Positions 5,356 through 31,491 of a stretch of 54,571 bases of DNA are shown here, piece by piece. The notes beneath the pieces were generated by a model. The model was not told the DNA's origin. It was given only the letters and a program-made list of their open reading frames with translations, and ran no database searches. Made by a program: the position numbers and the translations under genes. The stretch's first letter is position 1. The number at the start of each line of letters is the position of its first letter. Origin of the DNA: Eubacteriales bacterium (GTDB taxonomy: Bacteria > Bacillota > Clostridia > Oscillospirales > CAG-272); the NCBI GenBank assembly GCA_045612865.1, contig JAZKZW010000089.1:1-54571 (forward strand), in the 5' to 3' direction.

Positions 5356-5358
5356 CAA

Positions 5359-13711: not shown

Positions 13712-13716
13712 TAAAC

Positions 13717-13780
13717 GGAGCAAGGCTCAAATGTGGATAATATGAAAACTATTATTTGCATTTTACGGGCTTTGCTCTTT
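13717..13780 (+). terminator. Long imperfect hairpin/terminator after the acyltransferase
   Basis: GGAGCAAGGCTC-AAATGTGGATAAT pairs with ATTATTTGCATTT-GGGCTTTGCTCT, followed by T-rich sequence. Confidence 0.6.
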
Positions 13781-13930
13781 GTTTTTCTATAGGATGACAA
13801 AAGATATTAGGGATAAAATTCTGAACAAAACCGAACTGAAAATCAATAAATTGGACAAAAAAAGAAAGAGCTACAATGCCGCGAAAATGCAGTAAAGTGG
13901 CTCTTTTTTAGTTATGTAAAAATGCTTTAT

Positions 13931-14548
13931 TTAGTTTTTCTTCAGTACACCTTCGAGCAGGGCGGGCATAAGAGTGTTGTCGATCATATTTTCTATCTCT
14001 TCCGCGCTCATATTCTCGAACATAGCGCGCAGACCAAGGAAATTGGAAATACCCATCAGCGCATAGGCAACAGTTGTGTGGTCAACGGTATTAACCTCGT
14101 CAAAGCTCTTGGCAAGCCCCTTTGTATAGCTTTTTGCAAAGGAAACGTAGTAATCTATGAACATATTTTTGTCGATAGAAAGGCTTCCCCAGATAATGTT
14201 GTAAACATTAGGATTTTGCACAGCGTATTTAACGAAACATTTAATACCCTCGCGCTCGCACTCATATCTGCTGGAGCACCCTGCGATACTATCAGAGAGT
14301 CTGGATTTTATTTCGTGCTGGTATTTTTCCATCAAATATCTGTAGATGTCGGTTTTTGTATTAAAGTATATGTAGAAAGTTCCTACAGCGGTGCTCGCTC
14401 TCTTGCAAATGTCGGAAATTGAGGTCTGATAAAAGCCCACGTTTGTGAAAAGCTCCTCTGCCGCCTCTATAATTTTATGCATCTTGGCCAAACCCAGCTT
14501 TGTCTTTGGTTGGTTGACACCTTTTACGGTTAATGTTGAAGTTGACAT
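13931..14548 (-). CDS. TetR/AcrR family regulator, divergent from the catabolic cluster
   Basis: IIEAAEELF..GFYQTSISDICKRA..GTFYIYF..K HTH; start re-called to ATG 14548 (RBS AAAGG). Confidence 0.92.
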   Translation of the reverse strand: MSTSTLTVKGVNQPKTKLGLAKMHKIIEAAEELFTNVGFYQTSISDICKRASTAVGTFYIYFNTKTDIYRYLMEKYQHEIKSRLSDSIAGCSSRYECEREGIKCFVKYAVQNPNVYNIIWGSLSIDKNMFIDYYVSFAKSYTKGLAKSFDEVNTVDHTTVAYALMGISNFLGLRAMFENMSAEEIENMIDNTLMPALLEGVLKKN

Positions 14549-14573
14549 TGTGATACCTTTCGTTAAAAAAATC

Positions 14574-14608
14574 AATGTTATTATAACATTTCTTTCGGCA
14601 AATTGCAA
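14574..14608 (-). promoter_or_regulatory. tetR promoter with a palindrome over its -10 box
   Basis: Minus strand TTGCAA-17-TATAAT with extended TG; AATGTTA-TTA-TAACATT at 14574-14590. Confidence 0.7.
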
Positions 14609-14679
14609 TAGGTTTCGGTAATATTTTTGTATATTTTTCACTAAAATTATTTACTAACTTTTAATTTTTACATTATATA

Positions 14680-14708
14680 TTGACAAGAAAATTCGAATGT
14701 TATATAAT
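14680..14708 (+). promoter_or_regulatory. Consensus sigmaA promoter of the maoC-bcd-etf operon
   Basis: TTGACA(14680-85)-17-TATAAT(14703-08). Confidence 0.88.
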
Positions 14709-14718
14709 ATAAGTGTAA

Positions 14719-14865
14719 AAAATATGAATGATATTCAACATTTTTGGTGTAAATTTGGCGTACGCCTATTTTTTGGCCACAAAATATGAACTTTATTCAC
14801 ATTCTTAACTCGGAGTACAATGCGTACTCATTTTTTGGCTTCAAATTATGAACAAAATTCATTTT
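14719..14865. repeat. Degenerate 62-bp tandem repeat carrying three TGAA-N5-TTCA palindromes (putative operators)
   Basis: TGAA-N5-TTCA at 14725, 14787 and 14849; the first two units also share GCGTAC and TTTTTTGGC. Confidence 0.8.
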
Positions 14866-14888
14866 TACTATTTCAGGAGGAAATAACA

Positions 14889-15296
14889 ATGACATTCAAT
14901 GAACTTCAGGTAGGTCAAAAAGCATCGGTGCAGAAGACCTTTACAGCTGCGGACCTTACCCTCTTTGCAGGTGTGAGCCTTGACGTTAACCCAATCCACA
15001 TGAGCGACGAATATGCAAAGAACACAGTATTCGGCAAGAGAATCGTACACGGTATTCTTACATCCGGTCTTATCTCTGCTGTTCTTGCTAACAAGCTCCC
15101 CGGCCCCGGTACAATTTATCTTGGTCAAGACCTTCGCTTCGTAGCTCCCGTTTTCGTAGGTGACGATATTACCGCGGAAGTAGAGATTGCAGAAATCCGC
15201 GAGGACAAGAAGATCATTAAGCTTAATACAACCTGCTACAACCAGGACGGCAAGGCAGTTATTACAGGTATGGCAACCGTTAAGTTCAACGGTTAA
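14889..15296 (+). CDS. MaoC/PhaJ-type (R)-specific enoyl-CoA hydratase
   Basis: FAGVSLDVNPIH hydratase-2 motif, IVHG, LPGPGTIY; start re-called to 14889 after RBS CAGGAGG. Confidence 0.9.
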   Translation: MTFNELQVGQKASVQKTFTAADLTLFAGVSLDVNPIHMSDEYAKNTVFGKRIVHGILTSGLISAVLANKLPGPGTIYLGQDLRFVAPVFVGDDITAEVEIAEIREDKKIIKLNTTCYNQDGKAVITGMATVKFNG

Positions 15297-15305
15297 GGAG
15301 GAAAT

Positions 15306-16439
15306 ATGGCAAACTATAAGTCAATTCTGTTTGAACAGATGATAAAGGACTTCGCTGAGACAGAGGTTAAGCCCCTTGCACAGGAAGTTGACGAGGAAGA
15401 AAGATTCCCAAAAGAAACAGTAGAAAAGATGGCAAAGATGGGCCTTATGGGTATCATCATTCCTAAGGAATACGGCGGAGCAGGCGGCGACTACAATATG
15501 TATATCTCTGCGGTAGAAGAGCTCTCCAAGCATTGCGGAACTACAGGCGTTATCCTTTCTGCACACACATCTCTTTGTGCAGCTCCTATCCTTGAATACG
15601 GAACAGAGGATCAGAAGAAAAAGTACCTTCCCGACCTTGCAAGCGGCAGAAAGATCGGCGCTTTCGGTCTTACAGAGCCTAACGCAGGTACAGATGCAAG
15701 TAACCAGCAGACAGTAGCTGTTGAAAAAGAGGACCACTATCTCCTTAACGGAAGCAAGATCTTCATCACAAACGCAGGCTACGCATCTACATATATCATC
15801 ATCGCAGTTACCGGCAAGGGACCAAAGGGTCCTGAAATGTCCGCATTTATCGTTGAGAGCGCATTTGACGGCTTCTCTGTAGGTAAAAAGGAAAAGAAGA
15901 TGGGTATCCGTGGTTCTTCTACCTGTGAGCTTATCTTTGATAATGTTAAGGTTCCAAAGGAAAACCTCCTTGGTAAGCGTGGCGATGGCTTCAAAATTGC
16001 TATGAAAACTCTTGACGGCGGCCGTATCGGTATCGCAGCACAGGCTCTTGGTATTGCAGAGGGCGCTCTTGATGCAACCGTTGCATACGTTAAGTCCAGA
16101 AAGCAGTTTGGCAGACCTATCTCCGCATTCCAGAATACACAGTTCCAGCTTGCAGATATGGCAACAAAGGTTGCTGCAGCAAAGGGTCTTGTTTATGCAG
16201 CTGTAAACGCAAAGCAGAACAAGCTTCCTACTCTTTCTGTAAATGCAGCACAGGCAAAGCTCTTCGCGGCTGAGGTAGCTATGGAGGTTACCACTAAGGC
16301 GGTTCAGCTTCACGGCGGCTATGGCTACACACGTGAATATCCTGTTGAGAGAATGATGCGTGACGCAAAGATCACAGAGATCTACGAGGGTACCAGCGAG
16401 GTTCAGAGAATGGTAATCTCCGGCGCACTCCTTAGATAA
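15306..16439 (+). CDS. bcd: Butyryl-CoA (short-chain acyl-CoA) dehydrogenase
   Basis: FGLTEPNAGTD, GSKIFITN, KMGIRGS, QLHGGYGY, IYEGTSEVQR; adjacent to etfBA. Confidence 0.9.
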   Translation: MANYKSILFEQMIKDFAETEVKPLAQEVDEEERFPKETVEKMAKMGLMGIIIPKEYGGAGGDYNMYISAVEELSKHCGTTGVILSAHTSLCAAPILEYGTEDQKKKYLPDLASGRKIGAFGLTEPNAGTDASNQQTVAVEKEDHYLLNGSKIFITNAGYASTYIIIAVTGKGPKGPEMSAFIVESAFDGFSVGKKEKKMGIRGSSTCELIFDNVKVPKENLLGKRGDGFKIAMKTLDGGRIGIAAQALGIAEGALDATVAYVKSRKQFGRPISAFQNTQFQLADMATKVAAAKGLVYAAVNAKQNKLPTLSVNAAQAKLFAAEVAMEVTTKAVQLHGGYGYTREYPVERMMRDAKITEIYEGTSEVQRMVISGALLR

Positions 16440-16454
16440 GCGAGGTAAAACAGA

Positions 16455-17240
16455 ATGAAAATTATTGTATGTATCAAGCAGGTGCCTAACACCACCGAAA
16501 TTAAAATCGATCCAATCACCAATACACTTAAGCGTGACGGTGTTCCAAGTATTATAAACCCAGACGATAAGACCGCTATCGAGGCTGCCCTCCAGCTCAA
16601 AGAAAAGCACGGCGCAACCGTTACAGTTCTTACAATGGGTCCTGCCCAGGCAGAGAAGGCTCTTCGTGAAGCTCTCGCTATGGGTGCAGATGAGGCTTTC
16701 CTTCTTACAGACAGAGCCTTTGCAGGTAGTGATACACTCGCTACATCCACAATTATCGCAGCAGCTATCAGAAAGCTTGGCGCAGACATCGTATTCTGTG
16801 GCAGACAGGCTATCGACGGTGATACAGCTCAGGTTGGTCCTCAGATCTCCGAGCATCTCGGTATCCCACAGATCACTTACGCGGCAGCTATTGACTATGA
16901 CGCAGCAAGAGAAACTCTCATCGTTAAGCGTCAGTTCGAGGACAGATATCAGACTCTCGAGGTTCGCGGTCAGTGCCTCGTAACAATTCTTTCAACTCTC
17001 GATCAGCCCAGATATATGAACGTTTGGGACATCGTAAATCAGGACGAGAAGGAAATCGGAATCATCACATTTGCAGACCTTGATGTTAAGAAAGAAGACA
17101 TCGGTCTTGGTGGTTCTCCCACAAAGGTTAAATCCACAGCAACAAAGCAGTTTGACAAGACAATCGAAACTCTCGAGCTTGATCCCGAAACTGCAGCAAA
17201 GACAATTGTTGACGCTCTCAAGGCGCGTCATCTTATATAA
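16455..17240 (+). CDS. etfB: Electron transfer flavoprotein beta subunit
   Basis: VCIKQVP, NPDD, AGSDTLAT, GRQAIDGDTAQVGP. Confidence 0.95.
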   Translation: MKIIVCIKQVPNTTEIKIDPITNTLKRDGVPSIINPDDKTAIEAALQLKEKHGATVTVLTMGPAQAEKALREALAMGADEAFLLTDRAFAGSDTLATSTIIAAAIRKLGADIVFCGRQAIDGDTAQVGPQISEHLGIPQITYAAAIDYDAARETLIVKRQFEDRYQTLEVRGQCLVTILSTLDQPRYMNVWDIVNQDEKEIGIITFADLDVKKEDIGLGGSPTKVKSTATKQFDKTIETLELDPETAAKTIVDALKARHLI

Positions 17241-17254
17241 GGAGGTACAGATAA

Positions 17255-18220
17255 ATGGCAAAGAATATTTGGGTATTCTGCGAACAGCGTGATGGCGAAA
17301 TCCAGAATGTATCTCTTGAGCTTATCGGCGTAGCAAGAGAGCTCGCTGAAACTACAAAAGAAAAGGTTTGCGCAATGCTTCTCGGTCACAATATTACCGA
17401 CAAGGCTGCTGACCTTATTGCACACGGTGCAGACGAGGTTTGTGTTGTTGATGATGCAAATCTTGCACACTTCGTAACCGAGCAGTACGCACAGGCGGTT
17501 ACACACATTTCCAGAAAATATGAGCCTTCCGTAATCCTCTTCGGTGCAACAAGCATCGGCCGTGATCTTGCTCCCAGACTCTCTGCAAGACTTAAGACAG
17601 GTCTTACCGCAGACTGTACAAAGCTTGAGATCAATGAGGAAGGTCAGCTCTTTATGACAAGACCTGCATTTGGTGGTAACCTCTTTGCTACCATCATTTG
17701 TCCCGACCACCGTCCCCAGATGTCAACAGTTCGTCCCGGCGTTATGAAGAAGCTTGAAAGAGACGATTCCCGCACAGGTGAGGTTGTTGTTGAAAAGATG
17801 GATTGGGATACATCCAAGTTTGCTGTAACCGTTGTTGAGGAGGTTAGATCCACTCAGTGCGCAGGTAAGATCGAGGATGCAAAGATTCTTGTTTCTTGCG
17901 GTCGTGGCGTTAAGGATGTTGCTCCCGCATACGAGCTTGCAGGTAAGCTTAAGGGCGCAGTTTCTGCTTCCCGTGCTCTTGTTGACGTAGGCATTATTGA
18001 GCATTGCAACCAGGTTGGTCAGACAGGTAAGACCGTTCGTCCCGAGGCATATCTTGCATTTGGTATCAGCGGCGCTATCCAGCACCTTGCAGGTATGGAA
18101 GAATCTGAATATATCGTAGCTGTAAACACCGATAAGAATGCTCCTATCTTTAAGGTAGCTAACCTCGGTATCGTTGCAGACGCAGCTGCAGTATTCAAGA
18201 ACATCAACAAGCTCCTTTAA
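17255..18220 (+). CDS. etfA: Electron transfer flavoprotein alpha subunit
   Basis: GLTADCT, RPAFGG, QVGQTGKTV, GISGAIQHLAGM. Confidence 0.95.
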   Translation: MAKNIWVFCEQRDGEIQNVSLELIGVARELAETTKEKVCAMLLGHNITDKAADLIAHGADEVCVVDDANLAHFVTEQYAQAVTHISRKYEPSVILFGATSIGRDLAPRLSARLKTGLTADCTKLEINEEGQLFMTRPAFGGNLFATIICPDHRPQMSTVRPGVMKKLERDDSRTGEVVVEKMDWDTSKFAVTVVEEVRSTQCAGKIEDAKILVSCGRGVKDVAPAYELAGKLKGAVSASRALVDVGIIEHCNQVGQTGKTVRPEAYLAFGISGAIQHLAGMEESEYIVAVNTDKNAPIFKVANLGIVADAAAVFKNINKLL

Positions 18221-18283
18221 TACAAAAAAGCAAACAATTATTAACAAAGAACATAAAAAATAAAGAAATGCGAGGAAAAGACC

Positions 18284-19489
18284 ATGAATAAGGTTTATTT
18301 AGTAAGCGCTAAAAGAAGCGCTATCGGCAGCATGCTTGGCACGCTCAAAGATCTTTCTCCCACATATCTTGGCGCAGAGGTTCTTAAGGCTGCCTTGGCA
18401 GAAGGTGGTGTTAAGCCCGAGTGGCTTGATGAGGTGGTTGTAGGAAACGTTCTTCCTGCCGGTGTAAAGCAGGGTCCTGCAAGACAGGTTGCTATCGGAG
18501 CAGGTGTTCCCGTTGAAATTCCCGCGTATTCTATCAATATGGTATGCGGAAGCGGTATGAAGGCTGTTATGAACGCAACCGTTGCTATCAAGTCTGGCAT
18601 GGCTGATCTCGTTGCTGCAGGTGGTACTGAAGTAATGAGCGGCGCACCTTATCTCGTTCCCGGTAAGACACGCTGGGGCGCAAAGATGGGTGATATGAAG
18701 CTTCTCGACCATATGATTCTCGACTCTCTCACAGATGCCTTCGGCAATATGCACATGGGTATCACAGCAGAGAATGTTGCAGCAAGATTTGGCCTTACAA
18801 GAGAGATGCAGGATGAATTTGCTATCAACTCTCAGAGAAAGGCTATTGAGGCACAGGATGCCGGTAAATTCAAGAATGAGATCCATCCTCTTACAGTTAA
18901 AGCAGGTAAAAAAGAGATAGTATTCGATGCTGATGAATATATTAACAGAGCAACAACTCTTGAAAAACTCGGTACACTTCGTCCTGCATTCAAGGCTGAT
19001 GGTACTGTAACAGCAGGTAACGCTTCGGGTATTAACGACGGCGCAAGCTTTGTTATCCTTGCCAGCGAGGCTGCAGTAGAAAAGTATGGTCTCAAGCCTA
19101 TGGCAGAGGTTGTTGGTATCGGTCAGGGTGGCGTTGAGCCCGACGTTATGGGTCTTGGTCCCGTTCCTGCAGTAAGAAACGCTCTTATCAACGCAGGTAT
19201 GAAGCTCTCCGAAATCGAACTTCTCGAACTTAACGAGGCATTTGCAGCCCAGTCCCTTGGTGTTGTAAGACTTCTCTCCGAAGAACATGGCGAATCCGAG
19301 GAGGCTATCCTCTCCCGTTGTAACGTAAACGGCGGTGCAATTGCTCTTGGTCATCCCGTTGGCGCAAGCGGAAACAGAATTATCGTAACCCTCGCTCACG
19401 AGCTCAGACGTAGCGGTAAGACATACGGTCTTGCTTCTCTCTGCATCGGTGGCGGTATGGGTACAGCAGTAGTACTTAAAAGAATTTAA
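18284..19489 (+). CDS. thl: Acetyl-CoA C-acetyltransferase (thiolase)
   Basis: VCGSG, NEAFAAQ, GHPVGASG, CIGGG. Confidence 0.95.
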   Translation: MNKVYLVSAKRSAIGSMLGTLKDLSPTYLGAEVLKAALAEGGVKPEWLDEVVVGNVLPAGVKQGPARQVAIGAGVPVEIPAYSINMVCGSGMKAVMNATVAIKSGMADLVAAGGTEVMSGAPYLVPGKTRWGAKMGDMKLLDHMILDSLTDAFGNMHMGITAENVAARFGLTREMQDEFAINSQRKAIEAQDAGKFKNEIHPLTVKAGKKEIVFDADEYINRATTLEKLGTLRPAFKADGTVTAGNASGINDGASFVILASEAAVEKYGLKPMAEVVGIGQGGVEPDVMGLGPVPAVRNALINAGMKLSEIELLELNEAFAAQSLGVVRLLSEEHGESEEAILSRCNVNGGAIALGHPVGASGNRIIVTLAHELRRSGKTYGLASLCIGGGMGTAVVLKRI

Positions 19490-19503
19490 TGGAGGAATTA
19501 ACT

Positions 19504-20223
19504 ATGAGATTAGAAAATAAAGTTGCAATCGTAACCGGCGGCGCTAAAGGTCTTGGCGGTGAAATGGCTATGACTTTCGCAAGAGAAGGCGCAAAGGTTA
19601 TTGCAGTTGATATGGCTCCCCTTTCCTATGAGTGTGAGGGTGTAGAATTCTATCAGCTTAACGTTACCGATTCCGAAGCTTGTCACGCACTCTTTGAGTA
19701 TGCAAAGGAAAAATACGGTAGAATCGATATCCTCGTTAACAACGCAGGTATTACCCGTGACTCTATGACAAGAAAGATGACAGATGATCAGTGGGATCTC
19801 GTTATCGACATCAACCTTAAGGGTGTGTTCAATCTCACTCGCTACGTTGGTCCTTACATGGAAGAGATCGGCGGCGGTAGCATCATTAACATTTCCTCTG
19901 TTGTTGGTGAATATGGTAATATCGGTCAGGCTAACTACGCTGCTTCCAAGGCAGGTGTTATCGGTCTCACAAAGACTTGGGCTAAGGAATTTGCAAGAAA
20001 GGGCGTTCCCGTAAGAGTAAACGCTATCGCTCCCGGCTATATCATGACAGATATGATGAAGACAGTTCCGGAGGATCTCCTTAAGAAGTTCGCAGGTCTT
20101 ACAATGCTTGGCAGACTTGGCCAACCCGAGGAAATCGCAAAGGCAGCTCTATTCCTTGCAAGTGATGACTCCTCTTATGTAACAGGTCACGTTCTCTCCG
20201 TTAACGGCGGTATGAGATTGTAA
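19504..20223 (+). CDS. FabG/PhaB-family SDR, putative (R)-3-hydroxyacyl-CoA dehydrogenase
   Basis: TGGAKGLG, NNAGITRD, NYAASK; start 19504 after GGAGG; Asp at the end of beta2 (AVDM). Confidence 0.88.
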   Translation: MRLENKVAIVTGGAKGLGGEMAMTFAREGAKVIAVDMAPLSYECEGVEFYQLNVTDSEACHALFEYAKEKYGRIDILVNNAGITRDSMTRKMTDDQWDLVIDINLKGVFNLTRYVGPYMEEIGGGSIINISSVVGEYGNIGQANYAASKAGVIGLTKTWAKEFARKGVPVRVNAIAPGYIMTDMMKTVPEDLLKKFAGLTMLGRLGQPEEIAKAALFLASDDSSYVTGHVLSVNGGMRL

Positions 20224-20288
20224 TTCAAAATTACTCATAAATATCCAAAAATGCAAATAATTATTTGCAAACAGAAAGGAATTTGATC

Positions 20289-22222: not shown

Positions 22223-22225
22223 TGT

Positions 22226-24740: not shown

Positions 24741-24741
24741 T

Positions 24742-25458
24742 ATGGCATTACTTGAAATTAAGAACTTAAAGGTTTCTTACGGCTTTATTGCCGCCCTCAA
24801 AGGAATAAACATCAATGTTGAGAAGGGAAAGATCGTTGCGCTTCTTGGTTCTAACGGAGCAGGTAAGACAACAACACTTCGTGCTATCTCCGGTGCAATC
24901 AAGCCCGAGGGCGGAAGCATCATTCTCGACAAAAAGGACATATCCGGTCAGCCCACATACAAGGTTGCTAAAGCCGGCATTACCCAGTCTCCCGAAGGCC
25001 GTCTTCTTTTCCAGGAGCTCACCGTTGAGGAAAACCTCAGAGTTGGTGGATACCAGATCAAGGATAAGAACGAGCTTGAGCGCAACTTCCAGAGAGTTTA
25101 CAAGCTTTTCCCTGTACTCAAGGAAAGACGTAATCAGATAGCAAACACACTTTCGGGTGGAGAGCAGCAGATGGTTGCCATTGGCCGTGCTCTTATGTCT
25201 AATCCAAAGGTTCTTCTTCTTGACGAGCCTTCACTCGGTCTTGCGCCCCTCGTTATAGAGGAAATTTTCAAGGCCTTTGTAAAAATTCGTGAGGAAGGAA
25301 CTACAATTCTGATCGTTGAGCAGAACGCTCTCCAGACTCTCAAGATTGCAGACTATGCATACGTGCTTGAGCTTGGAAAGATCAGCTTGGAAGGTCCTGC
25401 AAAAGAGCTTATGACTAACAAGAAGCTCATCGACGCTTACCTCGGCGGCGGAAAATAA
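24742..25458 (+). CDS. LivF-like ABC ATPase
   Basis: GSNGAGKTT, LSGGEQQM, LDEPSLGLAP, VEQN, AYLG. Confidence 0.93.
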   Translation: MALLEIKNLKVSYGFIAALKGININVEKGKIVALLGSNGAGKTTTLRAISGAIKPEGGSIILDKKDISGQPTYKVAKAGITQSPEGRLLFQELTVEENLRVGGYQIKDKNELERNFQRVYKLFPVLKERRNQIANTLSGGEQQMVAIGRALMSNPKVLLLDEPSLGLAPLVIEEIFKAFVKIREEGTTILIVEQNALQTLKIADYAYVLELGKISLEGPAKELMTNKKLIDAYLGGGK

Positions 25459-25523
25459 TAATTTACGGTGATTAAAGCGCTAGCTTTAACATAAAAAACA
25501 AAACAAAAAAAGGAGAAAAAAAC

Positions 25524-26948
25524 ATGAAAAAGACACTCAAACTCATCGCTGCGCTTGCACTTGTAGCAAGCATGGTACTCTGTATGGCAAGCTGTGACGC
25601 ATTGACCAACTTTATCAATGGTCTTACAGGCAAAGCTCCCGAAGTAGCTGCACAGGGCGTAGACACAGAAAACCACGTTATCCATGTTGGTAACACAGCA
25701 GCAACATCCGGTGCTTTCGCATCAGTTGGCGTTCCCTTCAACTACGGTCAGGAAGCATACTTCTGGTACTTCACTAACCACACCGATGGTTACAAGGATG
25801 CAGACGGCAACAAGTACACAATCGAAATGCATCACTATGATGACGGCTTTGATGGCGTAAAGGGTAAGACCTATACTCAGAAGCTCGTTGAAGAAGACAA
25901 GGTATTCGCACTTGTTGGTCACTTCGGTTCTAACACTGTAGGTGCAACTGTTGACTACATCGAAGAGCAGGAAATTCCTATGGTTTACGGTGTATGTGGC
26001 GTTTCTGATCTCTACGAAACAGAGAGAAACATTATGACAGTTCAGCCTATCTATGATACTGAAGGTCAGTCCATGGTTGCTACCGCTTTCGCATCTGTTG
26101 AAGCAGGCGGTCTCGGCGCAAAGAAGCTCGGCGTTATCTCTACAACTGATGAAGCTGGTAGAGGTATGCTCAACGGTATCAAGATCGAAGTTAAAAAGCT
26201 CGGCAAGGGCGGTGCTACCGTTTACCAGGAAGTAGCTGCTGACGCTACAGATTATGTTGCAGCTGTTACAGCTCTTAAGTCTGCTGGTTGTGATGTAGTT
26301 ATCATCGCTGCTAACCAGGCTCCCTTCGTTAACATTGCTAACTCTTTCGTAGCTGCACAGTATGACAACGTTAAGCTCCTCACTTCCTATGTTTCTGCTA
26401 ACGCAGCTACAATGGGAGGTCTCGTTCTTACAGGTGCTATCAGCGCAACTCGTGAAGTATATGCAGGTGCATGGCTTGTTACAGGTTCTGTTCCCGCTCC
26501 TGAATTCAAGGGCTGGAATGACTTCGTTGAGTACGTTAAGATCATGACTATGTATGACAAGGCTCACGACGTTCCTCTTCTTCCTATGACTGATCCTACA
26601 TACGGCGCATTCATCGCTTACTGGTTCGGTACAGAGGCTTGGGCAGCTGAAGGCGTAAGCGCATACTTCCTCAACTCCTATGCAATGGCTGGTTTCGTTT
26701 CCGGTAACGTATTCTGCCAGGGTCTCTCCAGAATGAGCGGCAAGACTCTTACTTGGGAAGGCTACATCGCAGCTATGGAATCCGCTCCCGTTAACGTTCC
26801 TATGGGTCAGTCCGTAAGCTACGCTGACGGTCAGAGAGTTGGTATCGACTCCCTCGCAGTTAACAAGTACACTCTCGCTAACCTTGGCGCTGGTGAACTC
26901 TATCGTGGTATCACAGATCTCAAGACACTTGAGGACGCTTGCAAGTAA
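25524..26948 (+). CDS. HAAT-family substrate-binding lipoprotein
   Basis: Lipobox MASC; IHVGNTAATSG, YDDG, LVEEDKVFALVG type-I PBP motifs. Confidence 0.88.
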   Translation: MKKTLKLIAALALVASMVLCMASCDALTNFINGLTGKAPEVAAQGVDTENHVIHVGNTAATSGAFASVGVPFNYGQEAYFWYFTNHTDGYKDADGNKYTIEMHHYDDGFDGVKGKTYTQKLVEEDKVFALVGHFGSNTVGATVDYIEEQEIPMVYGVCGVSDLYETERNIMTVQPIYDTEGQSMVATAFASVEAGGLGAKKLGVISTTDEAGRGMLNGIKIEVKKLGKGGATVYQEVAADATDYVAAVTALKSAGCDVVIIAANQAPFVNIANSFVAAQYDNVKLLTSYVSANAATMGGLVLTGAISATREVYAGAWLVTGSVPAPEFKGWNDFVEYVKIMTMYDKAHDVPLLPMTDPTYGAFIAYWFGTEAWAAEGVSAYFLNSYAMAGFVSGNVFCQGLSRMSGKTLTWEGYIAAMESAPVNVPMGQSVSYADGQRVGIDSLAVNKYTLANLGAGELYRGITDLKTLEDACK

Positions 26949-27016
26949 TTAACACTTGAAAAACAAAAACGACCTAAAACAGGTCATAAATGTAAATTAA
27001 ATTTTACAAAACTTTA

Positions 27017-27044
27017 GCGATGAAGGGCATAGTCCCTTCATCGC
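27017..27044 (+). other. Perfect 11-bp hairpin without U-tract after the SBP gene (likely mRNA-stabilising)
   Basis: GCGATGAAGGG-catagt-CCCTTCATCGC. Confidence 0.7.
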
Positions 27045-27180
27045 CCTCTAATAAAAAGACGACTAGTATATCAAAAAAATAAAACAAAAAAACACAATCT
27101 ATAACTTTGAATATAATTCGCAAAATGCGATTCTTATAAATTTTACTAACAGAAAACACTATTAAAAAGGAGATATACAA

Positions 27181-28488
27181 ATGGCAAAGTATGTATCAAT
27201 CAATGAAGCGCTCGCACTTGTAAAGGACAACGATTATATCGTTACAGGTCTTGGCTCTGCAGAGGGCAGAGAATTTATGACAAACCTTCACACGATTGCA
27301 GACAGAGTAAAAGGAGTTATGGTTTCCAACTGTCTTCCCATGGGAGCATACGAATTCATAGTAAATCCCGAATATAAAAATAGCTTTACAACAGAGGGCT
27401 GGTTCTATACCCCCGTTCTTCGTAAGGCGCATAAAAATGGTAATGTATCCTTCATTCCTAACCACCTTCACCTCGCATCAAAGAAGAGACTCTTCTACCG
27501 TGAGCCCGACATTTACGTTGGTATCGCTTCTATGCCCGATAAGCACGGCTATGTTTCTCTCTCTATTTCCAATACATACGAGATGGCTATGATCAAGAAG
27601 GCGAAGATCGTTATTCTTGAATGTAACCCCAACGCGCCCAGAACCTTTGGTGACGTTCAGATCCACCTTGACGATGTTCACTACGTTGTTAATGTTGATT
27701 ATCCTATTCCCGAGATTGCAGACGTTGAGCCTAACGAAAAGGATCTTATCATCGGTAAGCTTATCGCAGAGATGGTTAATGACGGTGACTGCATCCAGCT
27801 CGGTATCGGCGGTATTCCCAACGCGGTTGCTGCAAGCCTTTATGGCAAGAAGGATCTTGGCGTTCATACAGAAATGCTTACCAGCGGAATGGTTAAGCTT
27901 GCAAAGGCAGGCGTTATCAACGGTAAGTGCAAGCAGATAAACCAGGGTAAGATGGTTGCCGCTTTCGCTATGGGTACAAAGGAGCTTTACGACTTCATCG
28001 ATGATAACCCCTCTGTTGAAATTCTTGACGGTGCTTGGGTAAACGATCCATATACCATCATGCAGAATGATAACCAGGTTTCTATTAACACAACTCTTGA
28101 GGTTGATATTACAGGTCAGTGCTGCTCCGAGTCTATCGGTTCTGTTCAGTTCTCCGGTACAGGCGGACAGTCTGATACAGCAGTTGGTGCGCAGAAGTCC
28201 AGAAACGGTCGCTCCATCATTGCTCTTTACTCCACCGCTATGGTTAAGGATCCCGTAACAGGCGAGAGAGTTGAGACCTCAAAGATCGTTTGCCAGCTTA
28301 AGGCAGGTGCTGCAGTTTCCCTCTCCAGAAACGATGTTGACTATCTTGTTACCGAGTACGGCTGCGTATCCCTTCGTGGTACATCTATCGCAGAGCGTGC
28401 AGAGAGAATTATCTCGGTAGCTCACCCCGCATTCAGAGAGCAGATCAGAAAAGAAGCTCTTGCACTTGGCATCATTGCTGACAGATAA
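27181..28488 (+). CDS. Family-I acyl-CoA:acetate CoA-transferase (Cat2/AbfT/But-like)
   Basis: QLGIGGIP, HTEM (catalytic Glu), SGTGGQ, VTEYG, SVAHP. Confidence 0.9.
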   Translation: MAKYVSINEALALVKDNDYIVTGLGSAEGREFMTNLHTIADRVKGVMVSNCLPMGAYEFIVNPEYKNSFTTEGWFYTPVLRKAHKNGNVSFIPNHLHLASKKRLFYREPDIYVGIASMPDKHGYVSLSISNTYEMAMIKKAKIVILECNPNAPRTFGDVQIHLDDVHYVVNVDYPIPEIADVEPNEKDLIIGKLIAEMVNDGDCIQLGIGGIPNAVAASLYGKKDLGVHTEMLTSGMVKLAKAGVINGKCKQINQGKMVAAFAMGTKELYDFIDDNPSVEILDGAWVNDPYTIMQNDNQVSINTTLEVDITGQCCSESIGSVQFSGTGGQSDTAVGAQKSRNGRSIIALYSTAMVKDPVTGERVETSKIVCQLKAGAAVSLSRNDVDYLVTEYGCVSLRGTSIAERAERIISVAHPAFREQIRKEALALGIIADR

Positions 28489-28502
28489 ATAGGTGAAAAT
28501 GT

Positions 28503-29324
28503 ATGGCAAAGTTTACATTTGATGGCTATGAAGTCTATTACGAGGTACACGGCGACCACGGCGAGCCACTTCTTATCCTTAACGGAATTATGATGTCCAC
28601 CGCCAGCTGGAAGCCTTTCCTTGGCGAATTTTCAAAAAATAATATTACCGTTTTAGTTGACTTTCTCGACCAGGGACAGAGCTCTCGCATAGCCCCCGGA
28701 TATAATCACGAGCTCCAGGTCAGAGTTCTTGAGGAGCTTTTCAAGGTTCTTCCCTATGAGAAGATGAGCATTATGGGCATATCCTATGGTGGCGAGGTTG
28801 CAATTCAATTTGCGGTAAAAAATCCCGATAAGGTAAGAAGACTTATCCTTGCCAACACCTGTGCGCGTACGTCCGATTGGCTCCGCAAGATTGGTGACGG
28901 CTGGAACGCAGTTGCAAAAACCGGTAGCGGCGAGGCGTATTACCTTACAACAATTCCCGTAATTTATTCCACAGCATTTTACGAGAGGGAAGCGGCTTGG
29001 ATGGAAAGACGCGAGGGAGTTCTTATTCCTTACTTCTCCCGTCCTGATGTTCAGGAGAGCCTTATTCGCTTGACTGATAGCTCTCGTGACTATGATTACA
29101 CAGACAGAGTTCACGAAATCAGCTGCCCCACACTCGTTATCTCCTGCTCCGAGGACTGCCTTGTGCCACCAACCGAGCAGATAATTCTTCACCAAAAAAT
29201 TAAAGGTAGCGCCTATGTTACCATCAACGGCTCCGGTCACGCAAGTATGTATGAGGATCCCGCGTCCTTTGCAGCCTTGGTTCTGGGCTTCACAAATCTT
29301 TCCGACGACGGAATTAAAATCTGA
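28503..29324 (+). CDS. Alpha/beta-hydrolase (esterase / enol-lactonase-like)
   Basis: LNG oxyanion loop, GISYGG nucleophile, SED acid, GHA His. Confidence 0.85.
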   Translation: MAKFTFDGYEVYYEVHGDHGEPLLILNGIMMSTASWKPFLGEFSKNNITVLVDFLDQGQSSRIAPGYNHELQVRVLEELFKVLPYEKMSIMGISYGGEVAIQFAVKNPDKVRRLILANTCARTSDWLRKIGDGWNAVAKTGSGEAYYLTTIPVIYSTAFYEREAAWMERREGVLIPYFSRPDVQESLIRLTDSSRDYDYTDRVHEISCPTLVISCSEDCLVPPTEQIILHQKIKGSAYVTINGSGHASMYEDPASFAALVLGFTNLSDDGIKI

Positions 29325-29338
29325 TTTGGAGAAAAAAT

Positions 29339-30214
29339 ATGAAAAAGTATAGAGTTTCAATAGGTAAAGAAGATATTGCCTTTATCGATGAGGGCCAGGG
29401 CGAGGTTGTTTTGCTTGTTCACGGAAACATGTCCTCCTCCGTGCATTTTAAGCCCCTTATCGACCGTATTAAGCATAAATATAGATGCGTTGCTATAGAT
29501 CTTCGCGGCTTTGGCGACTCCAGCTATAATAACAGATTTGACACTCTTGATGAGCTTGCAGAGGATGTTAATGCCTTCACAGAAAGAATGGGCATCAAGA
29601 GCTATTACCTCGTTGGTTGGTCTAACGGTGGTGGTGTTTCTCTCAAGCTTTGTGCAAAGTATCCTGAAAAGGTAAAGAAGTTCTTTGACATCGAGGGCGC
29701 AGGTCACAAGGGATATCCCCTTTATCAGAAGGAAAACTATGTTTCCACAGGCAAGGCTTATCCATCAAAGGAGGCTATGGCAGAGGATCCCATCCAGGTT
29801 GCTCCCGCAGTTCGTATTTTTGAAAAGGGTGATGCTGTTAGCATGACAGCTATCTGGGACGCTACAATCTACACAGTTAATAAGCCCTCCAAGGCAGAAA
29901 ACGATTTCTATATGTCCGAAACATTGAAGCAGAGAAACCTTGTTGACCTTGACTGGGCTCTTGCAAATCTCAATATGTCAGACGAATATACTCCCTACGG
30001 ACTTGGTGACGGCACTATAAAGAATATCAAGTGTCCTGTTGCGCTCACAATGGCAGATAAGGATATCGTAGTTCCTGATTATATGGTTCTTGATAACTAC
30101 AACGCCCTTGGCGACCTTGCAACCCTTCTTCCTTATGAAAACTGCGGTCACTCTCCTCTGATTGATTGCCCTGATCGCCTTGCTAAAGACGTACTGGAGT
30201 TCTTCGGAAAGTAA
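29339..30214 (+). CDS. Alpha/beta-hydrolase resembling Bacillus intracellular PHB depolymerase PhaZ
   Basis: HGNMSSS, DLRGFG, GWSNGG, KGYP, EDPIQVAP, QRNLVD, DIVVP, CGHSPLIDC; colinear with the B. thuringiensis PhaZ sequence as I recall it. Confidence 0.75.
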   Translation: MKKYRVSIGKEDIAFIDEGQGEVVLLVHGNMSSSVHFKPLIDRIKHKYRCVAIDLRGFGDSSYNNRFDTLDELAEDVNAFTERMGIKSYYLVGWSNGGGVSLKLCAKYPEKVKKFFDIEGAGHKGYPLYQKENYVSTGKAYPSKEAMAEDPIQVAPAVRIFEKGDAVSMTAIWDATIYTVNKPSKAENDFYMSETLKQRNLVDLDWALANLNMSDEYTPYGLGDGTIKNIKCPVALTMADKDIVVPDYMVLDNYNALGDLATLLPYENCGHSPLIDCPDRLAKDVLEFFGK

Positions 30215-30230
30215 GGTTTATAAAAAAGCT

Positions 30231-30995
30231 ATGATTTTAGCAATTGATATTGGAAATACTAATATAGCTATTGGCGGTTTTTATGGAGAAGAGCTGCGCT
30301 TTGTTGCCAGAATTTCTACCGACCCAACCAAAACTGCAGACGAGTATTCCAGCAAGATTTTGCATATGCTATCTCTCTACGGTCTTGATAGAGCAGAGGT
30401 TTCGGGCGCTATTATTTCATCGGTAGTTCCTCCCTTGAACTCTATTATGACCAAGGCTATAAAGACTATTTACGGCGTGGATTCTCTAATGGTTGGCCCC
30501 GGAATAAAAACGGGAATAGGAATCCATTGCGACAACCCCGCATCTGTAGGCGCAGACCTTATTTGTGCCTGTGTTTCAGCCCATTATCTTCACGGCTCGC
30601 CATCTCTTATAATTGATATGGGAACGGCTACTAAAATGATGGTAGTGGACAAGAATGGGGCTTTTATTGGTGTGTCAATTATGCCTGGGGTTATGATGGG
30701 TCTTCTCGGGTTGTCCTCCGGAACTGCTCAGCTCCCCCAGGTTAGTTTAGATGCTCCTACAAGAGTCATCGGTAAGAATACTGCCGATTGTATGAAGTCG
30801 GGTGCCATATACGGCAATGCAGCAATGATAGACGGTATGATAGATCGCTTTAACGAGGAATATGGCGAGAGGCTTCCTGTTTATGCTACGGGTGGTTACT
30901 CCCATTCTATCATCAAGCATTGTAAGCACGAGATCACCATTGATGAGAACCTTGTTCTTCACGGTCTTTATATCATTTATAAGAAAAATGTATAG
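30231..30995 (+). CDS. coaX: Type III pantothenate kinase
   Basis: IDIGNTN, SSVVP, VGAD, IDMGTAT, ATGG; start re-called to 30231. Confidence 0.93.
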   Translation: MILAIDIGNTNIAIGGFYGEELRFVARISTDPTKTADEYSSKILHMLSLYGLDRAEVSGAIISSVVPPLNSIMTKAIKTIYGVDSLMVGPGIKTGIGIHCDNPASVGADLICACVSAHYLHGSPSLIIDMGTATKMMVVDKNGAFIGVSIMPGVMMGLLGLSSGTAQLPQVSLDAPTRVIGKNTADCMKSGAIYGNAAMIDGMIDRFNEEYGERLPVYATGGYSHSIIKHCKHEITIDENLVLHGLYIIYKKNV

Positions 30996-31005
30996 TTAGA
31001 TGCTT

Positions 31006-31041
31006 AAAAGGTGGTGCTTTTTTCTTAGGTGCCGCCTTTTT
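31006..31041 (+). terminator. Terminator closing the catabolic cluster
   Basis: AAAAGGTGGTGC / GTGCCGCCTTTT stem plus T run. Confidence 0.7.
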
Positions 31042-31136
31042 ATATGTTTTTTATTTCAAAATGGGTTGAACTTATTGTTTATATGTGCTATAATATAGCC
31101 AGATAGAATTATTTGCGCTTATAAAGGAGAGAAATA

Positions 31137-31442: not shown

Positions 31443-31491
31443 TAGCTCGGCAGTAGTATCGCTGATAACTTTATTAAAAATGAATAAAAAT

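Follow-up and report, generated by a model that had tools for sequence, protein, structure and literature searches.

A run of genes in an Oscillospirales genome (Eubacteriales bacterium, CAG-272; contig JAZKZW010000089.1, assembly GCA_045612865.1) probably forms a self-contained two-part operon under repression by a TetR-family protein, and its carriers are uncultured gut Clostridia. Its first part would be a complete C4 acyl-CoA pathway, consisting of a thiolase, an NAD(H)-type FabG/PhaB-like dehydrogenase, a PhaJ-type hydratase, bifurcating Bcd/EtfAB and a CoA-transferase. The second part would correspond to a module widespread in Bacillota, with a Liv-type importer dependent on a substrate-binding protein (SBP), a CoA-transferase of the 4-hydroxybutyrate type, cytoplasmic α/β hydrolases and a KAS-III-like protein. 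We tentatively propose, at somewhat short of even chances, that (R)-3-hydroxybutyrate (3HB) or its short esters or oligomers are imported, cleaved, activated with CoA and fermented to acetate and butyrate; 3HB esters are our best guess for the substrate.

Organization of the locus

The window, that is, the whole 54,571-nt stretch of DNA that was analyzed, contains the following features.

13931-14641, - strand: TetR-family regulator, divergently transcribed (Pfam TetR_N, 48.8 bits)
14680-14708, + strand: candidate sigma-70 promoter, TTGACA-17 nt-TATAAT, 12/12 consensus positions
14725-14737, + strand: tentative operator-like palindrome TGAATGATATTCA, read from the sequence, between promoter and MaoC
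14787-14799, + strand: tentative operator-like palindrome TGAACTTTATTCA, likewise read from the sequence between promoter and MaoC
14820-15296, + strand: MaoC, PhaJ-type (R)-specific enoyl-CoA hydratase (MaoC_dehydratas, 90.8 bits)
15306-16439, + strand: Bcd, butyryl-CoA-type acyl-CoA dehydrogenase (all three Pfam ACAD domains)
16455-17240, + strand: EtfB (ETF)
17255-18220, + strand: EtfA (ETF_alpha)
18284-19489, + strand: thiolase, acetyl-CoA C-acetyltransferase (Thiolase_N, Thiolase_C)
19489-20223, + strand: FabG/PhaB-like SDR (adh_short_C2, 221.5 bits)
20265-21311, + strand: KAS-III-like protein, PRK06840 family (NF005308, 443.6 bits, cut-off 315)
21311-22222, + strand: LivH (BPD_transp_2)
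22226-23338, + strand: LivM (BPD_transp_2)
23319-24740, + strand: LivG (ABC_tran; the importer set also has BCA_ABC_TP_C)
24742-25458, + strand: LivF (ABC_tran)
25524-26948, + strand: lipoprotein SBP (Peripla_BP_6, 106.7 bits)
27016-27045, - strand in the scan: hairpin with a 12-bp stem, in the gap between SBP and CoA-transferase
27181-28488, + strand: family-I CoA-transferase, 4-hydroxybutyrate CoA-transferase type (AcetylCoA_hyd_C, 192 bits)
28503-29324, + strand: α/β hydrolase Est1 (Abhydrolase_1; GISYG; no signal peptide, hence cytoplasmic)
29339-30214, + strand: PhaZ-like hydrolase (GWSNG; no signal peptide; cytoplasmic)
30162-30995, + strand: CoaX, type III pantothenate kinase, last gene of the run (Pan_kinase, 199.4 bits)
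31006-31040, + strand: terminator-like hairpin after coaX, 14-pair stem, then a T-rich tail
49311-50510: ackA

Every gene that the initial annotation had named, from maoC to coaX opposite the TetR gene as well as ackA at 49311, was recovered in its order and position, and a Pfam domain search of the run agreed with its statement that Hbd, Crt, ACP, FabD, FabF and PhaC are absent from the cluster. The run lies on the + strand, facing the TetR gene, and is bounded by the perfect promoter match and the terminator-like hairpin. Intergenic gaps span 0–65 bp throughout the run, with one exception, a stretch of 232 bp that separates the CoA-transferase gene from that of the SBP; it holds no ACP-sized open reading frame, and the 12-bp-stem hairpin in it is possibly a partial terminator or mRNA stabilizer. 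Promoter-like sites in the region total the same as in shuffled sequences, so we place weight only on the perfect match in the intergenic region; the simple palindrome pattern upstream of MaoC occurs in only five of 32 regions (the window and 31 loci), and Rfam returned zero family matches across 13700-31700. Three proteins probably start further in than listed, TetR at M31 or later, MaoC at 14889 rather than 14820 and the KAS-III-like protein at 20289 rather than 20265. The best NCBIfam match of the regulator is the fatty-acid regulator FadR, far under the FadR cut-off. Beyond the operon the window is saccharolytic, with GH53, GH13, a sugar ABC transporter and the glycogen branching enzyme GlgB, pointing to use of galactan and starch and to glycogen; no secreted depolymerase is encoded within the window.

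Predicted enzymes and importer

The (R), NAD and bifurcating character of the C4 enzymes is assigned from homology, as are their families. The closest solved relative of MaoC is the (R)-specific enoyl-CoA hydratase PhaJ of A. caviae (1iq6, E 3.8e-37), an enzyme acting on C4–C6 chain lengths, and MaoC contains the motif SLDVNPIH, Asp and His included. Among solved proteins the nearest to the SDR are 4nbt (E 5.9e-107) and 4nbu, with 2et6, a (3R)-hydroxyacyl-CoA dehydrogenase, third; 4NBT and 4NBU are NAD-bound according to the available part of PMC5264612. We read the SDR as a putative NAD(H)-dependent (R)-3-hydroxyacyl-CoA dehydrogenase/acetoacetyl-CoA reductase, whose VIAVD would lie at the end of strand β2. 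The claim that (R)-type families stand in for Hbd and Crt is thus borne out, and, in contrast to the classical clostridial butyrate locus, this operon would proceed via (R)-3-hydroxybutyryl-CoA and not the (S)-form. The thiolase exceeds the cut-off of TIGR01930 (454 versus 240.55 bits), and Bcd scores 500.7 bits against NCBIfam AcrC, under the cut-off of 640. EtfB has its best solved relatives in 5ol2_B (C. difficile Bcd/Etf, E 5e-82), 6fah_B (CarD) and 4kpu_B, compared with only ~88 bits against non-bifurcating Etfs, which places EtfAB in the electron-bifurcating group by sequence.

The importer is a HAAT/Liv-type ABC system in which every NCBIfam LivH/M/G/F and Urt match falls under cut-off, and at the N terminus of LivG lies a charged extension of ~215 amino acids that was missing from the earlier description. 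The SBP has a signal peptide with the lipobox MASC, no NCBIfam match and marginal sequence matches only to solved proteins; the nearest fold to its AF2 model (pLDDT 89.4) is the fatty-acid SBP 4n03, with Leu/Ile/Val and aromatic-acid binders close behind. The CoA-transferase scores 290 bits against TIGR03948, under the cut-off of 674.8, and is closest among solved proteins to 3gk7 (E 5.4e-91). Est1 is a generic hydrolase (best NCBIfam match pcaD, 104 bits, under the cut-off of 255.85), and its neighbor passes the intracellular scl-PHA depolymerase equivalog NF050089 by a margin of 4 bits (304 versus a cut-off of 300). With the poly(3-hydroxybutyrate) depolymerase 8ynv as its best solved relative (E 2.2e-59), the PhaZ-like hydrolase is, as judged by homology, a genuine relative of the Bacillus intracellular PHB depolymerase; together with the Liv genes and the SBP, its NF050089 match upholds the reported presence of an importer and a PhaZ-like hydrolase. 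CoaX matches NF009855 (238 bits, cut-off 233), the family match starting at residue 24.

The KAS-III-like protein is the best-conserved product of the locus, at 76–96% identity over 80 loci. Alignment with FabH indicates that Cys and His are retained and that the catalytic Asn of FabH is replaced by His; this Cys-His-His active site is conserved across the PRK06840 family. A nucleophilic Cys with two His is also the arrangement of the decarboxylating KAS I/II enzymes.

Recurrence of the locus and content of the carrier genomes

Of 80 related loci, 24 contain the complete 16-gene set from TetR to PhaZ, and contig or flank edges truncate most of the remainder. The arrangement is not due to chance; this is what the synteny check proposed with the initial annotation yielded. 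The entire cluster is also spanned by two contigs of 18.3 kb and 13.5 kb from an independent bovine gut run. A further 24, more remote loci carry a core of MaoC, KAS3-LivHMGF-SBP-CoA-transferase-Est1 and TetR that stands apart from any butyrate genes; the PhaZ-like gene is limited to the close group, with none in these 24. Across the wider Bacillota the core of KAS-III-like protein, CoA-transferase, importer and esterase recurs with MaoC or SDR. Among 20 KAS3 contexts from other families, neighbors of the gene include a CoA-transferase (14 contexts), LivGF (15), Est1/PhaZ-like hydrolases (10) and MaoC or SDR (15), the last two occurring together in only one. This pattern fits a funnel for (R)-3-hydroxyacyl-CoA, since one of the two enzymes beside the module is expected if its (R)-3-hydroxyacyl-CoA has to be oxidized or dehydrated to enter an (S)-specific pathway of the host. 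In two other taxa, secreted Lipase_2-like proteins adjoin the module.

The suggested search of the genomes for hbd, crt and phaC likewise found none in the carriers: no Hbd, crotonase or PhaC turned up in any of 11 carrier genomes (G422, 99% complete, and ten without stated completeness), and the same searches gave 10 crotonase and 9 Hbd matches in the control Lawsonibacter celer. The window's own genome (70.7% complete) has no crotonase, PhaC_N or class III PhaC, and its sole 3HCDH_N match, of 21.7 bits, lies inside a 706-amino acid frame. Nor did any of 51 genomes from the family to which the window belongs, a set that includes its own genome, give a crotonase match. In each of five carrier genomes the cluster Bcd is the sole Acyl-CoA_dh_N match; RnfD was found in four of five genomes, and KAS I/II in none of five, two of these being 99% complete, for which reason an ACP-dependent role is unlikely. 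As far as gene content reveals, the operon is the only route to butyryl-CoA visible in carrier genomes.

Possible roles of the operon

In the proposed fermentation, the importer would bring in (R)-3HB, its short esters or oligomers, ester bonds would be cut in the cytoplasm by the PhaZ-like hydrolase and Est1, and the CoA-transferase, with acetyl-CoA or butyryl-CoA as CoA donor, would form (R)-3-hydroxybutyryl-CoA. One share would be oxidized by the SDR and split by the thiolase to acetyl-CoA, giving acetate and ATP via AckA; the other would lose water through MaoC and be reduced to butyryl-CoA by Bcd/EtfAB, with reduced ferredoxin for Rnf and butyrate released after CoA transfer. The net conversion would be of two 3HB to two acetate and one butyrate. 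Started from acetyl-CoA, the same enzymes would serve as a butyrate branch for sugar fermenters. The available text of PMC10096456 describes how Ilyobacter ferments 3HB and PHB to acetate and butyrate, and that of PMC7244492 the conversion of D-3HB to butyrate by gut communities. Of the initial proposal, the replacement of Hbd and Crt by (R)-type enzymes, the PhaZ relative and the lack of PhaC stand, but "undescribed pathway" was too strong; it is this gene arrangement that we did not find in the literature. Against 3HB esters count the 4-bit margin of the PhaZ-like match and its restriction to the close group, the generic nature of Est1, the lack of a secreted depolymerase in the window and its otherwise saccharolytic content, an SBP whose model comes about as close to Leu/Ile/Val and aromatic-acid binders as to fatty-acid ones, and the KAS-III-like protein, a condensing-enzyme relative that has no necessary role in this scheme.

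A less probable but serious alternative is an ordinary butyrate branch from sugar-derived acetyl-CoA, running through thiolase, NADH-dependent SDR, MaoC, bifurcating Bcd/EtfAB and CoA-transferase with acetate as acceptor, while a second, independent module of importer, KAS-III-like protein and hydrolases would handle another imported acid or ester and have just the CoA-transferase and regulator in common with the branch. The locus encodes each of the five steps leading from acetyl-CoA to butyrate, the SDR is nearest to NAD-bound, acetoacetyl-CoA-reducing FabG-like enzymes, and the missing Hbd and Crt and the presence of Rnf in four of five genomes agree with such a branch, as does AckA in the window. 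Since the genome has no acyl-CoA dehydrogenase other than that of the operon, the latter may simply be the cell's butyrate branch; and because the rest of the window is given to galactan, starch and glycogen, sugar fermentation explains the thiolase-to-CoA-transferase part equally well. However, an SBP-dependent importer and cytoplasmic esterases would be superfluous for a central branch, yet share its tight transcription unit, and a TetR/FadR-like repressor would be typical of substrate-specific catabolic operons. Moreover, most genera of the family do without the cluster (the PhaZ-like gene is in only two of the 51 genomes, the window's own counted, and a 99%-complete genome labelled as the same genus lacks KAS3), and genomes already equipped with canonical hbd/crt, L. 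celer among them, carry the core module by itself.

It is considerably less likely that the locus serves CoA-dependent chain elongation or acid remodelling, in which the KAS-III-like protein would condense imported, CoA-activated short acids with acetyl-CoA or malonyl-CoA, SDR, MaoC and Bcd-Etf would run an (R), FAS-like cycle on CoA esters, and the hydrolases would act as thioesterases freeing C6 or longer products. The KAS I/II-like Cys and two His, the conservation of KAS3, the highest in the locus, its place nearly always beside the CoA-transferase and the fatty-acid binder as nearest fold to the SBP are consistent with this, and ACP-based FAS is not available in genomes lacking KAS I/II. 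But MaoC or SDR occurs singly in 14 of the 15 other-family contexts having either, so the module alone cannot run an elongation cycle; the cluster has no acetyl-CoA carboxylase or ACP gene, MaoC is nearest to a C4–C6 PhaJ, and the equivalog-level PHB depolymerase match is left unexplained.

Improbable, too, is an (R)-type β-oxidation comparable to that of peroxisomal MFE-2, in which the esterases would release fatty acids or 3-hydroxy fatty acids from lipids or lipid A, these acids would be imported, Bcd/Etf would work oxidatively and thiolase or KAS3 would cleave. MaoC and SDR do resemble the two halves of MFE-2 (compare the third-ranked 2et6), and the TetR/FadR-like regulator, the fatty-acid SBP fold and the Lipase_2-like neighbors would suit it, but the Etf groups with the bifurcating, reductive butyryl-CoA type and the hydratase with short-chain PhaJ, the cluster lacks an acyl-CoA synthetase, and a sugar-fermenting gut anaerobe would have no evident electron sink for fatty-acid oxidation. 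Least probable of all is turnover of the cell's own PHB, with thiolase, SDR and MaoC feeding a polymerase and the PhaZ-like enzyme mobilizing granules: thiolase, PhaB-like SDR, PhaJ-like MaoC and PhaZ equivalog make up the classic PHB-cycle set, and some Clostridia make PHB (according to the available part of PMC5159582), but neither the genome of the window nor any of 12 further genomes gave a PhaC_N match, no class III/IV PhaC exceeds cut-off (the class III search being one without a positive control), GlgB points to a glycogen store, and importer and CoA-transferase are left unexplained.

The operon may give its carriers a way to ferment esters of 3-hydroxybutyrate. It would also account for the apparent incompleteness of such bacteria as butyrate producers.

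Gene organization and C4 acyl-CoA enzymes

Between positions 13931 and 30995, a TetR gene on the minus strand faces sixteen co-oriented genes which, according to Pfam and NCBIfam, encode in order MaoC, Bcd, EtfB, EtfA, a thiolase, a short-chain dehydrogenase (SDR), a KAS-III-like protein, LivH, LivM, LivG, LivF, a Peripla_BP_6 binding protein (SBP), a family-I CoA-transferase, two alpha/beta hydrolases and CoaX. These searches bore out all the gene names that the initial annotation had given to the cluster. The genes discussed individually here are:

19489-20223, plus strand, FabG/PhaB-like SDR
20265-21311, plus strand, KAS-III-like protein
25524-26948, plus strand, SBP, a lipoprotein
27181-28488, plus strand, CoA-transferase
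28503-29324, plus strand, alpha/beta hydrolase Est1
29339-30214, plus strand, PhaZ-like hydrolase

The spacing between cluster genes is 0-65 bp, with the sole exception of a 232-bp gap after the SBP gene, which contains a hairpin and no ACP-sized frame. The region between TetR and MaoC contains a perfect TTGACA-17-TATAAT match, and coaX is followed by a terminator-like hairpin with a 14-pair stem. Given the tight packing, the promoter match and the coaX hairpin, the run looks like a single operon, or like two units meeting at the gap hairpin. The GC content of the cluster (0.41-0.48) is the same as that of the flanks, so there is no island signal, and no riboswitch or other RNA within the cluster matched Rfam at E <= 0.1. 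Two palindromes downstream of the promoter were considered as a candidate TetR operator and set aside, since their pattern, TGAA-N4-6-TTCA, occurs in just five of 32 upstream regions, which does not show conservation. Contigs from the RNA library X12, 90-95% alike, cover 25 of the 30 bins of the cluster region and span the SDR/KAS-III and KAS-III/LivH borders; this cover is not counted as proof of transcription, as there is no silent control stretch and such libraries may contain DNA, and no weight is given to the gaps, which comprise five bins (13700-14899, 28700-29299 and 30500-31699).

For the MaoC protein, a single hot-dog domain of ~135 aa, the best solved relative is Aeromonas caviae PhaJ, an (R)-specific enoyl-CoA hydratase (PDB: 1iq6, E 3.8e-37, residues 25-156 versus 2-133). 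It contains the sequence SLDVNPIH, with the Asp/His pair of the hydratase-2 motif, and its family membership predicts (R)-stereospecificity on crotonyl-CoA. The best solved relatives of the SDR are 4nbt (E 5.9e-107) and 4nbu, two FabG-type enzymes, from Acholeplasma laidlawii and Bacillus sp. SG-1, that PMC5264612 lists as NAD-bound; the SDR is also near 2et6, the (3R)-hydroxyacyl-CoA dehydrogenase part of yeast MFE-2. It scores under the cut-offs of both FabG equivalog models (285.8 versus 296 and 273.9 versus 297.75), and its beta-2 strand ends in VIAVD, from which a preference for NAD(H) is predicted. Thiolase, Bcd and EtfAB occur together in the cluster, as recognized by Pfam and NCBIfam, and EtfB aligns at 229-278 bits with bifurcating Etfs (C. 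difficile Bcd, CarCDE and A. fermentans), versus ~88 bits for non-bifurcating ones. The CoA-transferase is of the 4-hydroxybutyrate type (best solved relative 3gk7, E 5.4e-91) and scores 290 bits against the But family TIGR03948, whose cut-off is 674.8.

The initial annotation had remarked on the missing Hbd and Crt, and this absence proved to extend from the cluster to the genomes. Eleven carriers were searched, namely G422, a 99%-complete genome, and ten genomes reached via loci with the full gene set (completeness is given for G422 only): none of the 11 has an Hbd (3HCDH_N) match at E <= 1e-5, and none has a crotonase, while the same searches returned 10 crotonase and nine Hbd matches in the control, Lawsonibacter celer. 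The window's own genome, a bin 70.7% complete in which the initial annotation had suggested looking for phaC, hbd and crt, has no crotonase (ECH_1), no PhaC and a sub-threshold 3HCDH_N match of 21.7 bits. No crotonase was present in the window's family either, in which 51 genomes, its own among them, were searched. The cluster Bcd is the only acyl-CoA dehydrogenase in each of five carrier genomes, four of which encode RnfD. Furthermore, KAS I/II (PF00109) was not found in any of the five genomes analyzed for it (G422, G424, G451, G453 and the window's own, G000), two of which are 99% complete, and the cluster has none of the fab genes of type II fatty acid synthase (FabF/B, FabD, ACP). In G424, no FabH-like match to the KAS-III query was found either. 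These small-genome gut Clostridia thus seem to be without type II fatty acid synthesis altogether, so that the FabG-like and KAS-III-like proteins would not be part of such a system. On the basis of these data, we consider it highly probable that the thiolase, SDR, MaoC, Bcd/Etf and CoA-transferase constitute a full C4 pathway via an (R)-hydroxy intermediate, the sole visible route by which these genomes could reach butyryl-CoA.

With respect to the bin itself, the flanks of the cluster (1-13900 and 31000-50999) match G422, which belongs to another genus of the same family, at 72-78% nucleotide identity over kilobases. Against G424, 99% complete and nominally of the same genus, they share short conserved pieces only, and G424 is without the KAS-III-like gene. 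The window's genome holds two RnfD genes; the bin may be mixed, or the contig mis-binned.

Conservation of the cluster and of a KAS-III-like core module

When the KAS-III-like protein was used to scan species-representative genomes, 80 loci were obtained, all of them in gut-derived Clostridia, from sheep, goat, yak, deer, chicken and human sources and including two cultured strains. Fifty-six loci form a close group. The whole TetR-to-PhaZ set is present in the same order in 24 of the 80, most of the others being cut by contig or flank ends. Two contigs of 13.5 and 18.3 kb from an independent bovine gut run cover the whole cluster. One locus from a goat-rumen MAG (L042, 7581-9242) has MaoC followed directly by the thiolase, with bcd-etfBA missing and the cluster otherwise intact. 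In 24 more distant loci, mapped by tblastn and including those of Flavonifractor sp. An82 and Lawsonibacter celer, a core is kept with no adjoining thiolase, SDR or PhaZ-like gene: MaoC lies on the opposite strand, followed by KAS-III, LivHMGF, SBP, in some cases a hydrolase, CoA-transferase, Est1 and TetR. The KAS-III-like gene is the best-conserved gene of the locus (76-96% identity). Among the transporter genes two classes can be told apart: the SBP has at least 60% identity to that of the window in 11 close loci and 31-47% in 35, and LivH and LivM split as the SBP does (L002-L055 compared with window positions 21311-26948); the enzymes of the same clusters are ~90% identical. This pattern points to two transporter cassettes, either swapped or representing two substrate variants.

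Beyond these relatives, the KAS-III family model NF005308 has over-cut-off matches in 32 of the 401 genomes sampled from the phylum, including the window's genome. The window proteins were mapped onto 20-kb contexts of 20 of the 35 over-cut-off places, one per genome and spread over families; the tally was made by hand from the map, and related genomes in it are not independent. Near the KAS-III-like gene, 14 of the 20 contexts have a CoA-transferase of the same type, 15 have LivG/LivF and 10 have a hydrolase resembling Est1 or PhaZ. MaoC and the SDR are each found in eight contexts, at least one of them in 15 and both in only one. Genes for sigma-54 PAS activators, sodium:solute symporters and secreted Lipase_2-like proteins also occur nearby; in one context (L114), Bcd-EtfBA-Hbd-Thl and a sigma-54 activator are followed by MaoC-Est1-KAS-III-CoA-transferase. 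The module also stands alone in genomes already holding canonical hbd and crt. That it usually brings along one (R)-type enzyme, a dehydrogenase or a hydratase, is what would be expected of a funnel whose product, (R)-3-hydroxyacyl-CoA, is not accepted by an (S)-specific host pathway. This association of KAS-III-like protein, CoA-transferase, importer and esterase is conserved across many Bacillota families, and no studied member was found in the literature searched. Lawsonibacter celer NSJ-47 and Flavonifractor sp. An82 are cultured carriers of the core.

The KAS-III-like protein scores 443.6 bits against PRK06840/NF005308 (cut-off 315) and falls under the cut-offs of the FabH models. FabH structures are nevertheless its best solved matches (E 4e-25), with weaker matches to CerJ and PqsC, and it has the fold and nucleophilic Cys of FabH, CerJ and PqsBC. 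When aligned to FabH, it retains this Cys and the first His, whereas the catalytic Asn is replaced by His (YGHIG) and the HQAN motif by H-x-K-R. The main paralog shows the resulting Cys-His-His arrangement at every one of the 24 further loci compared, including the related L050, L064, L072 and L074. It further differs from FabH in that its genomic neighbours are CoA-transferase and importer genes and that the carrier genomes, in which KAS I/II was not found, appear to have no type II synthase to prime. In the ESM Atlas it falls in generic KAS-III clusters only, and the family name PRK06840 is not mentioned in the literature searched. In five contexts (L115, L120, L122, L124 and L130), the CoA-transferase is flanked by a further KAS-III paralog, 25-29% identical, which lacks the two His residues and has TQINK and YGY where their motifs would be; the arrangement recalls heterodimeric KAS-III-like enzymes, and this paralog is possibly the non-catalytic partner of a heterodimer.

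The pairing with the CoA-transferase suggests that the KAS-III-like protein acts on the product of that enzyme, the candidate activities being thiolase-like cleavage, condensation or CoA-dependent cleavage of oligomer esters. In the last case, the CoA-transferase would charge the free carboxyl end of an imported 3-hydroxybutyrate (3HB) oligomer, the KAS-III-like protein would cleave the ester bonds of the oligomer with CoA ("thiolysis"), and each bond would yield (R)-3-hydroxybutyryl-CoA with no acetyl-CoA spent. The protein would then be a new kind of ester-to-thioester acyltransferase, and the module a widespread, energy-saving salvage of PHB debris by anaerobic Bacillota that feeds an Hbd/Crt-independent butyrate fermentation in these gut Clostridia, a scheme that we offer as speculation and consider improbable as a whole.

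Hydrolases, importer and a possible substrate

The PhaZ-like hydrolase scores 304 bits against NF050089, the equivalog model of Bacillus-type intracellular scl-PHA depolymerases, a marginal match given the cut-off of 300, and aligns with the solved PHB depolymerase 8ynv over residues 11-287 (E 2.2e-59). Its serine nucleophile lies in the G-x-S-x-G box GWSNG, and its N-terminus, judged by eye, does not resemble a signal peptide; a cytoplasmic location is predicted. Est1, a generic hydrolase by family match, likewise has a Ser nucleophile and no signal peptide. The components of the importer score under the cut-offs of all Liv and Urt models. The lipoprotein SBP matched no NCBIfam model and gave marginal sequence matches to solved proteins; a Foldseek search with its model placed a fatty-acid SBP first, followed at similar scores by Leu/Ile/Val, aromatic-acid and urea binders, an order that does not separate ligand classes.

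LivG begins with a Lys/Arg/Glu-rich extension of ~215 aa (window 23319-23960), apparently coiled-coil and without a Pfam match, and in its 498-aa frame the ABC domain begins at about residue 243. L050 encodes a comparably long LivG (474 aa), while most distant loci have one of normal length.

A secreted PhaZ7-like depolymerase was also considered as part of the module. Secreted Lipase_2-like proteins of 403 and 469 aa, with signal peptides and an AHSKG box, adjoin the KAS-III/CoA-transferase pair in two contexts (L114, 12399-13610, and L121, 6751-8160). In sequence, B. subtilis LipA (E ~5e-9) is a closer match to them than PhaZ7 (E 5e-4 to 6e-3), a lipase model (pLDDT 92.9) has generic lipases as its top hits and PhaZ7 at ranks 11-14 with TM ~0.3, and their relatives comprise at least 791 uncharacterised proteins of anaerobes that bear only generic esterase or acetyltransferase names, so no specific link to PhaZ7 emerged.

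The PHB-depolymerase equivalog, the cytoplasmic esterases behind an importer and the (R)-funnel pattern together make (R)-3HB or its short esters the most economical substrate, from which the disproportionation scheme of the initial annotation, with the stoichiometry known from Ilyobacter, would follow. We tentatively propose that the operon imports and ferments (R)-3HB or its short esters, a reading that is possible but falls short of probable. The main alternative is that the operon serves as the butyrate branch of sugar fermentation, to which an uptake module for something else is attached. The window is otherwise saccharolytic, and against a 3HB-ester substrate count the marginal PhaZ-like match, which is confined to the close group, and an SBP fold equally near several ligand classes. 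We regard this alternative as somewhat less likely than the 3HB reading. Both could hold together, as they draw on the same enzymes. The features outside the operon are:

35912-42763 and 44739-53115, polysaccharide-use neighbourhood with two GH53 galactanases, a GH13 enzyme, a sugar ABC transporter with a MalK-like ATPase, acetate kinase and a glycogen branching enzyme
12395-13711, ORF of 438 aa without a Pfam match, directly upstream of the TetR gene and without an NCBIfam match either
39634-41439, ORF of 601 aa without a Pfam match
42992-44626, minus strand, ORF of 544 aa without a Pfam match
31958-33007, minus strand, ORF of 349 aa with a weak PI-PLC-X (phosphatidylinositol phospholipase C) match, just downstream of the operon and on the opposite strand

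Relation to known systems and significance

As in the clostridial bcs locus (thl, hbd, crt, bcd, etfB, etfA and but/buk), a thiolase, Bcd, a bifurcating EtfBA and a terminal CoA-transferase are united in one operon with the same end points, acetyl-CoA and butyrate. Unlike that locus, the operon has a FabG/PhaB-like SDR and a PhaJ-like hydratase in place of Hbd and Crt, so that the expected intermediate is (R)-3-hydroxybutyryl-CoA; its CoA-transferase is of the 4-hydroxybutyrate type and does not reach the But cut-off; and the operon also takes in genes for an importer, two esterases and a KAS-III-like protein as well as coaX. There is also a likeness to the caffeate respiration system CarABCDE of Acetobacterium woodii, CarD (6fah_B) being the second-best solved match of EtfB. 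In that system, a CoA-transferase charges the imported acid, and a Bcd-like reductase with a bifurcating Etf reduces the enoyl-CoA, a logic that the operon presumably shares. CarABCDE differs in its substrate and has no hydratase, thiolase, esterases or KAS-III-like gene. Some clostridial bcs-like operons contain maoC, but those described in PMC6615313 keep crt and hbd and are under sigma-54 activators, the maoC-bearing one being read there as butyrate synthesis in response to an unknown signal, whereas the operon described here is without crt and hbd and adjoins a TetR gene.

PhaA, PhaB, PhaJ and the Bacillus-type intracellular PhaZ, the types of protein that make up the PHB cycle, are all represented in the window by homology. 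Unlike the PHB cycle, however, no PHA synthase, phasin or PhaR was found (PhaC_N, and class III/IV PhaC over cut-off, are missing from the window's genome and the 11 carriers, the class III search being one without a positive control), and the SDR looks NAD(H)- rather than NADPH-dependent. The joining of PHB-cycle-type genes to Bcd/Etf and an importer suggests catabolism or fermentation, not storage. Such a fermentation is known in Ilyobacter polytropus and I. delafieldii, which convert two 3HB to two acetate and one butyrate anaerobically (PMC10096456, citing Stieb & Schink 1984, Janssen & Harfoot 1990 and Janssen & Schink 1993). Its stoichiometry and branch logic could be run by the operon. 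The Ilyobacter system, however, consists of physiology and enzyme activities in Fusobacteria, with no gene cluster assigned in the accessible part of PMC10096456, whereas the carriers of the operon are uncultured gut Clostridia known here from their genes, and the window encodes no secreted depolymerase.

The physiology of anaerobic 3HB/PHB fermentation, the chemistry of PhaB and PhaJ, the bifurcating Bcd/Etf and the occurrence of maoC in some bcs-like operons are thus already known. In the literature searched, which covered few subscription journals, we found neither an Hbd/Crt-free butyrate operon of this make-up, nor its fusion to an importer/esterase/KAS-III-like module, nor a function for that module. 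In gut metagenomics, butyrate producers are usually recognized by their hbd and crt genes. By this practice, the widespread Clostridia of ruminant, poultry and human guts described here would be missed or scored as incomplete. A survey of gut Clostridia lists, without explanation, 185 species that have the terminal butyrate branch while their upstream segment is incomplete (PMC13106387). The operon may account for some of them, and the (R)-specific bypass would repair predictions of butyrate producers. If the operon does ferment (R)-3HB or its short esters, it would represent the first gene set for anaerobic 3HB/PHB fermentation and would provide a mechanism by which the ketone body D-3-hydroxybutyrate and PHB feed additives are converted to butyrate in the gut.
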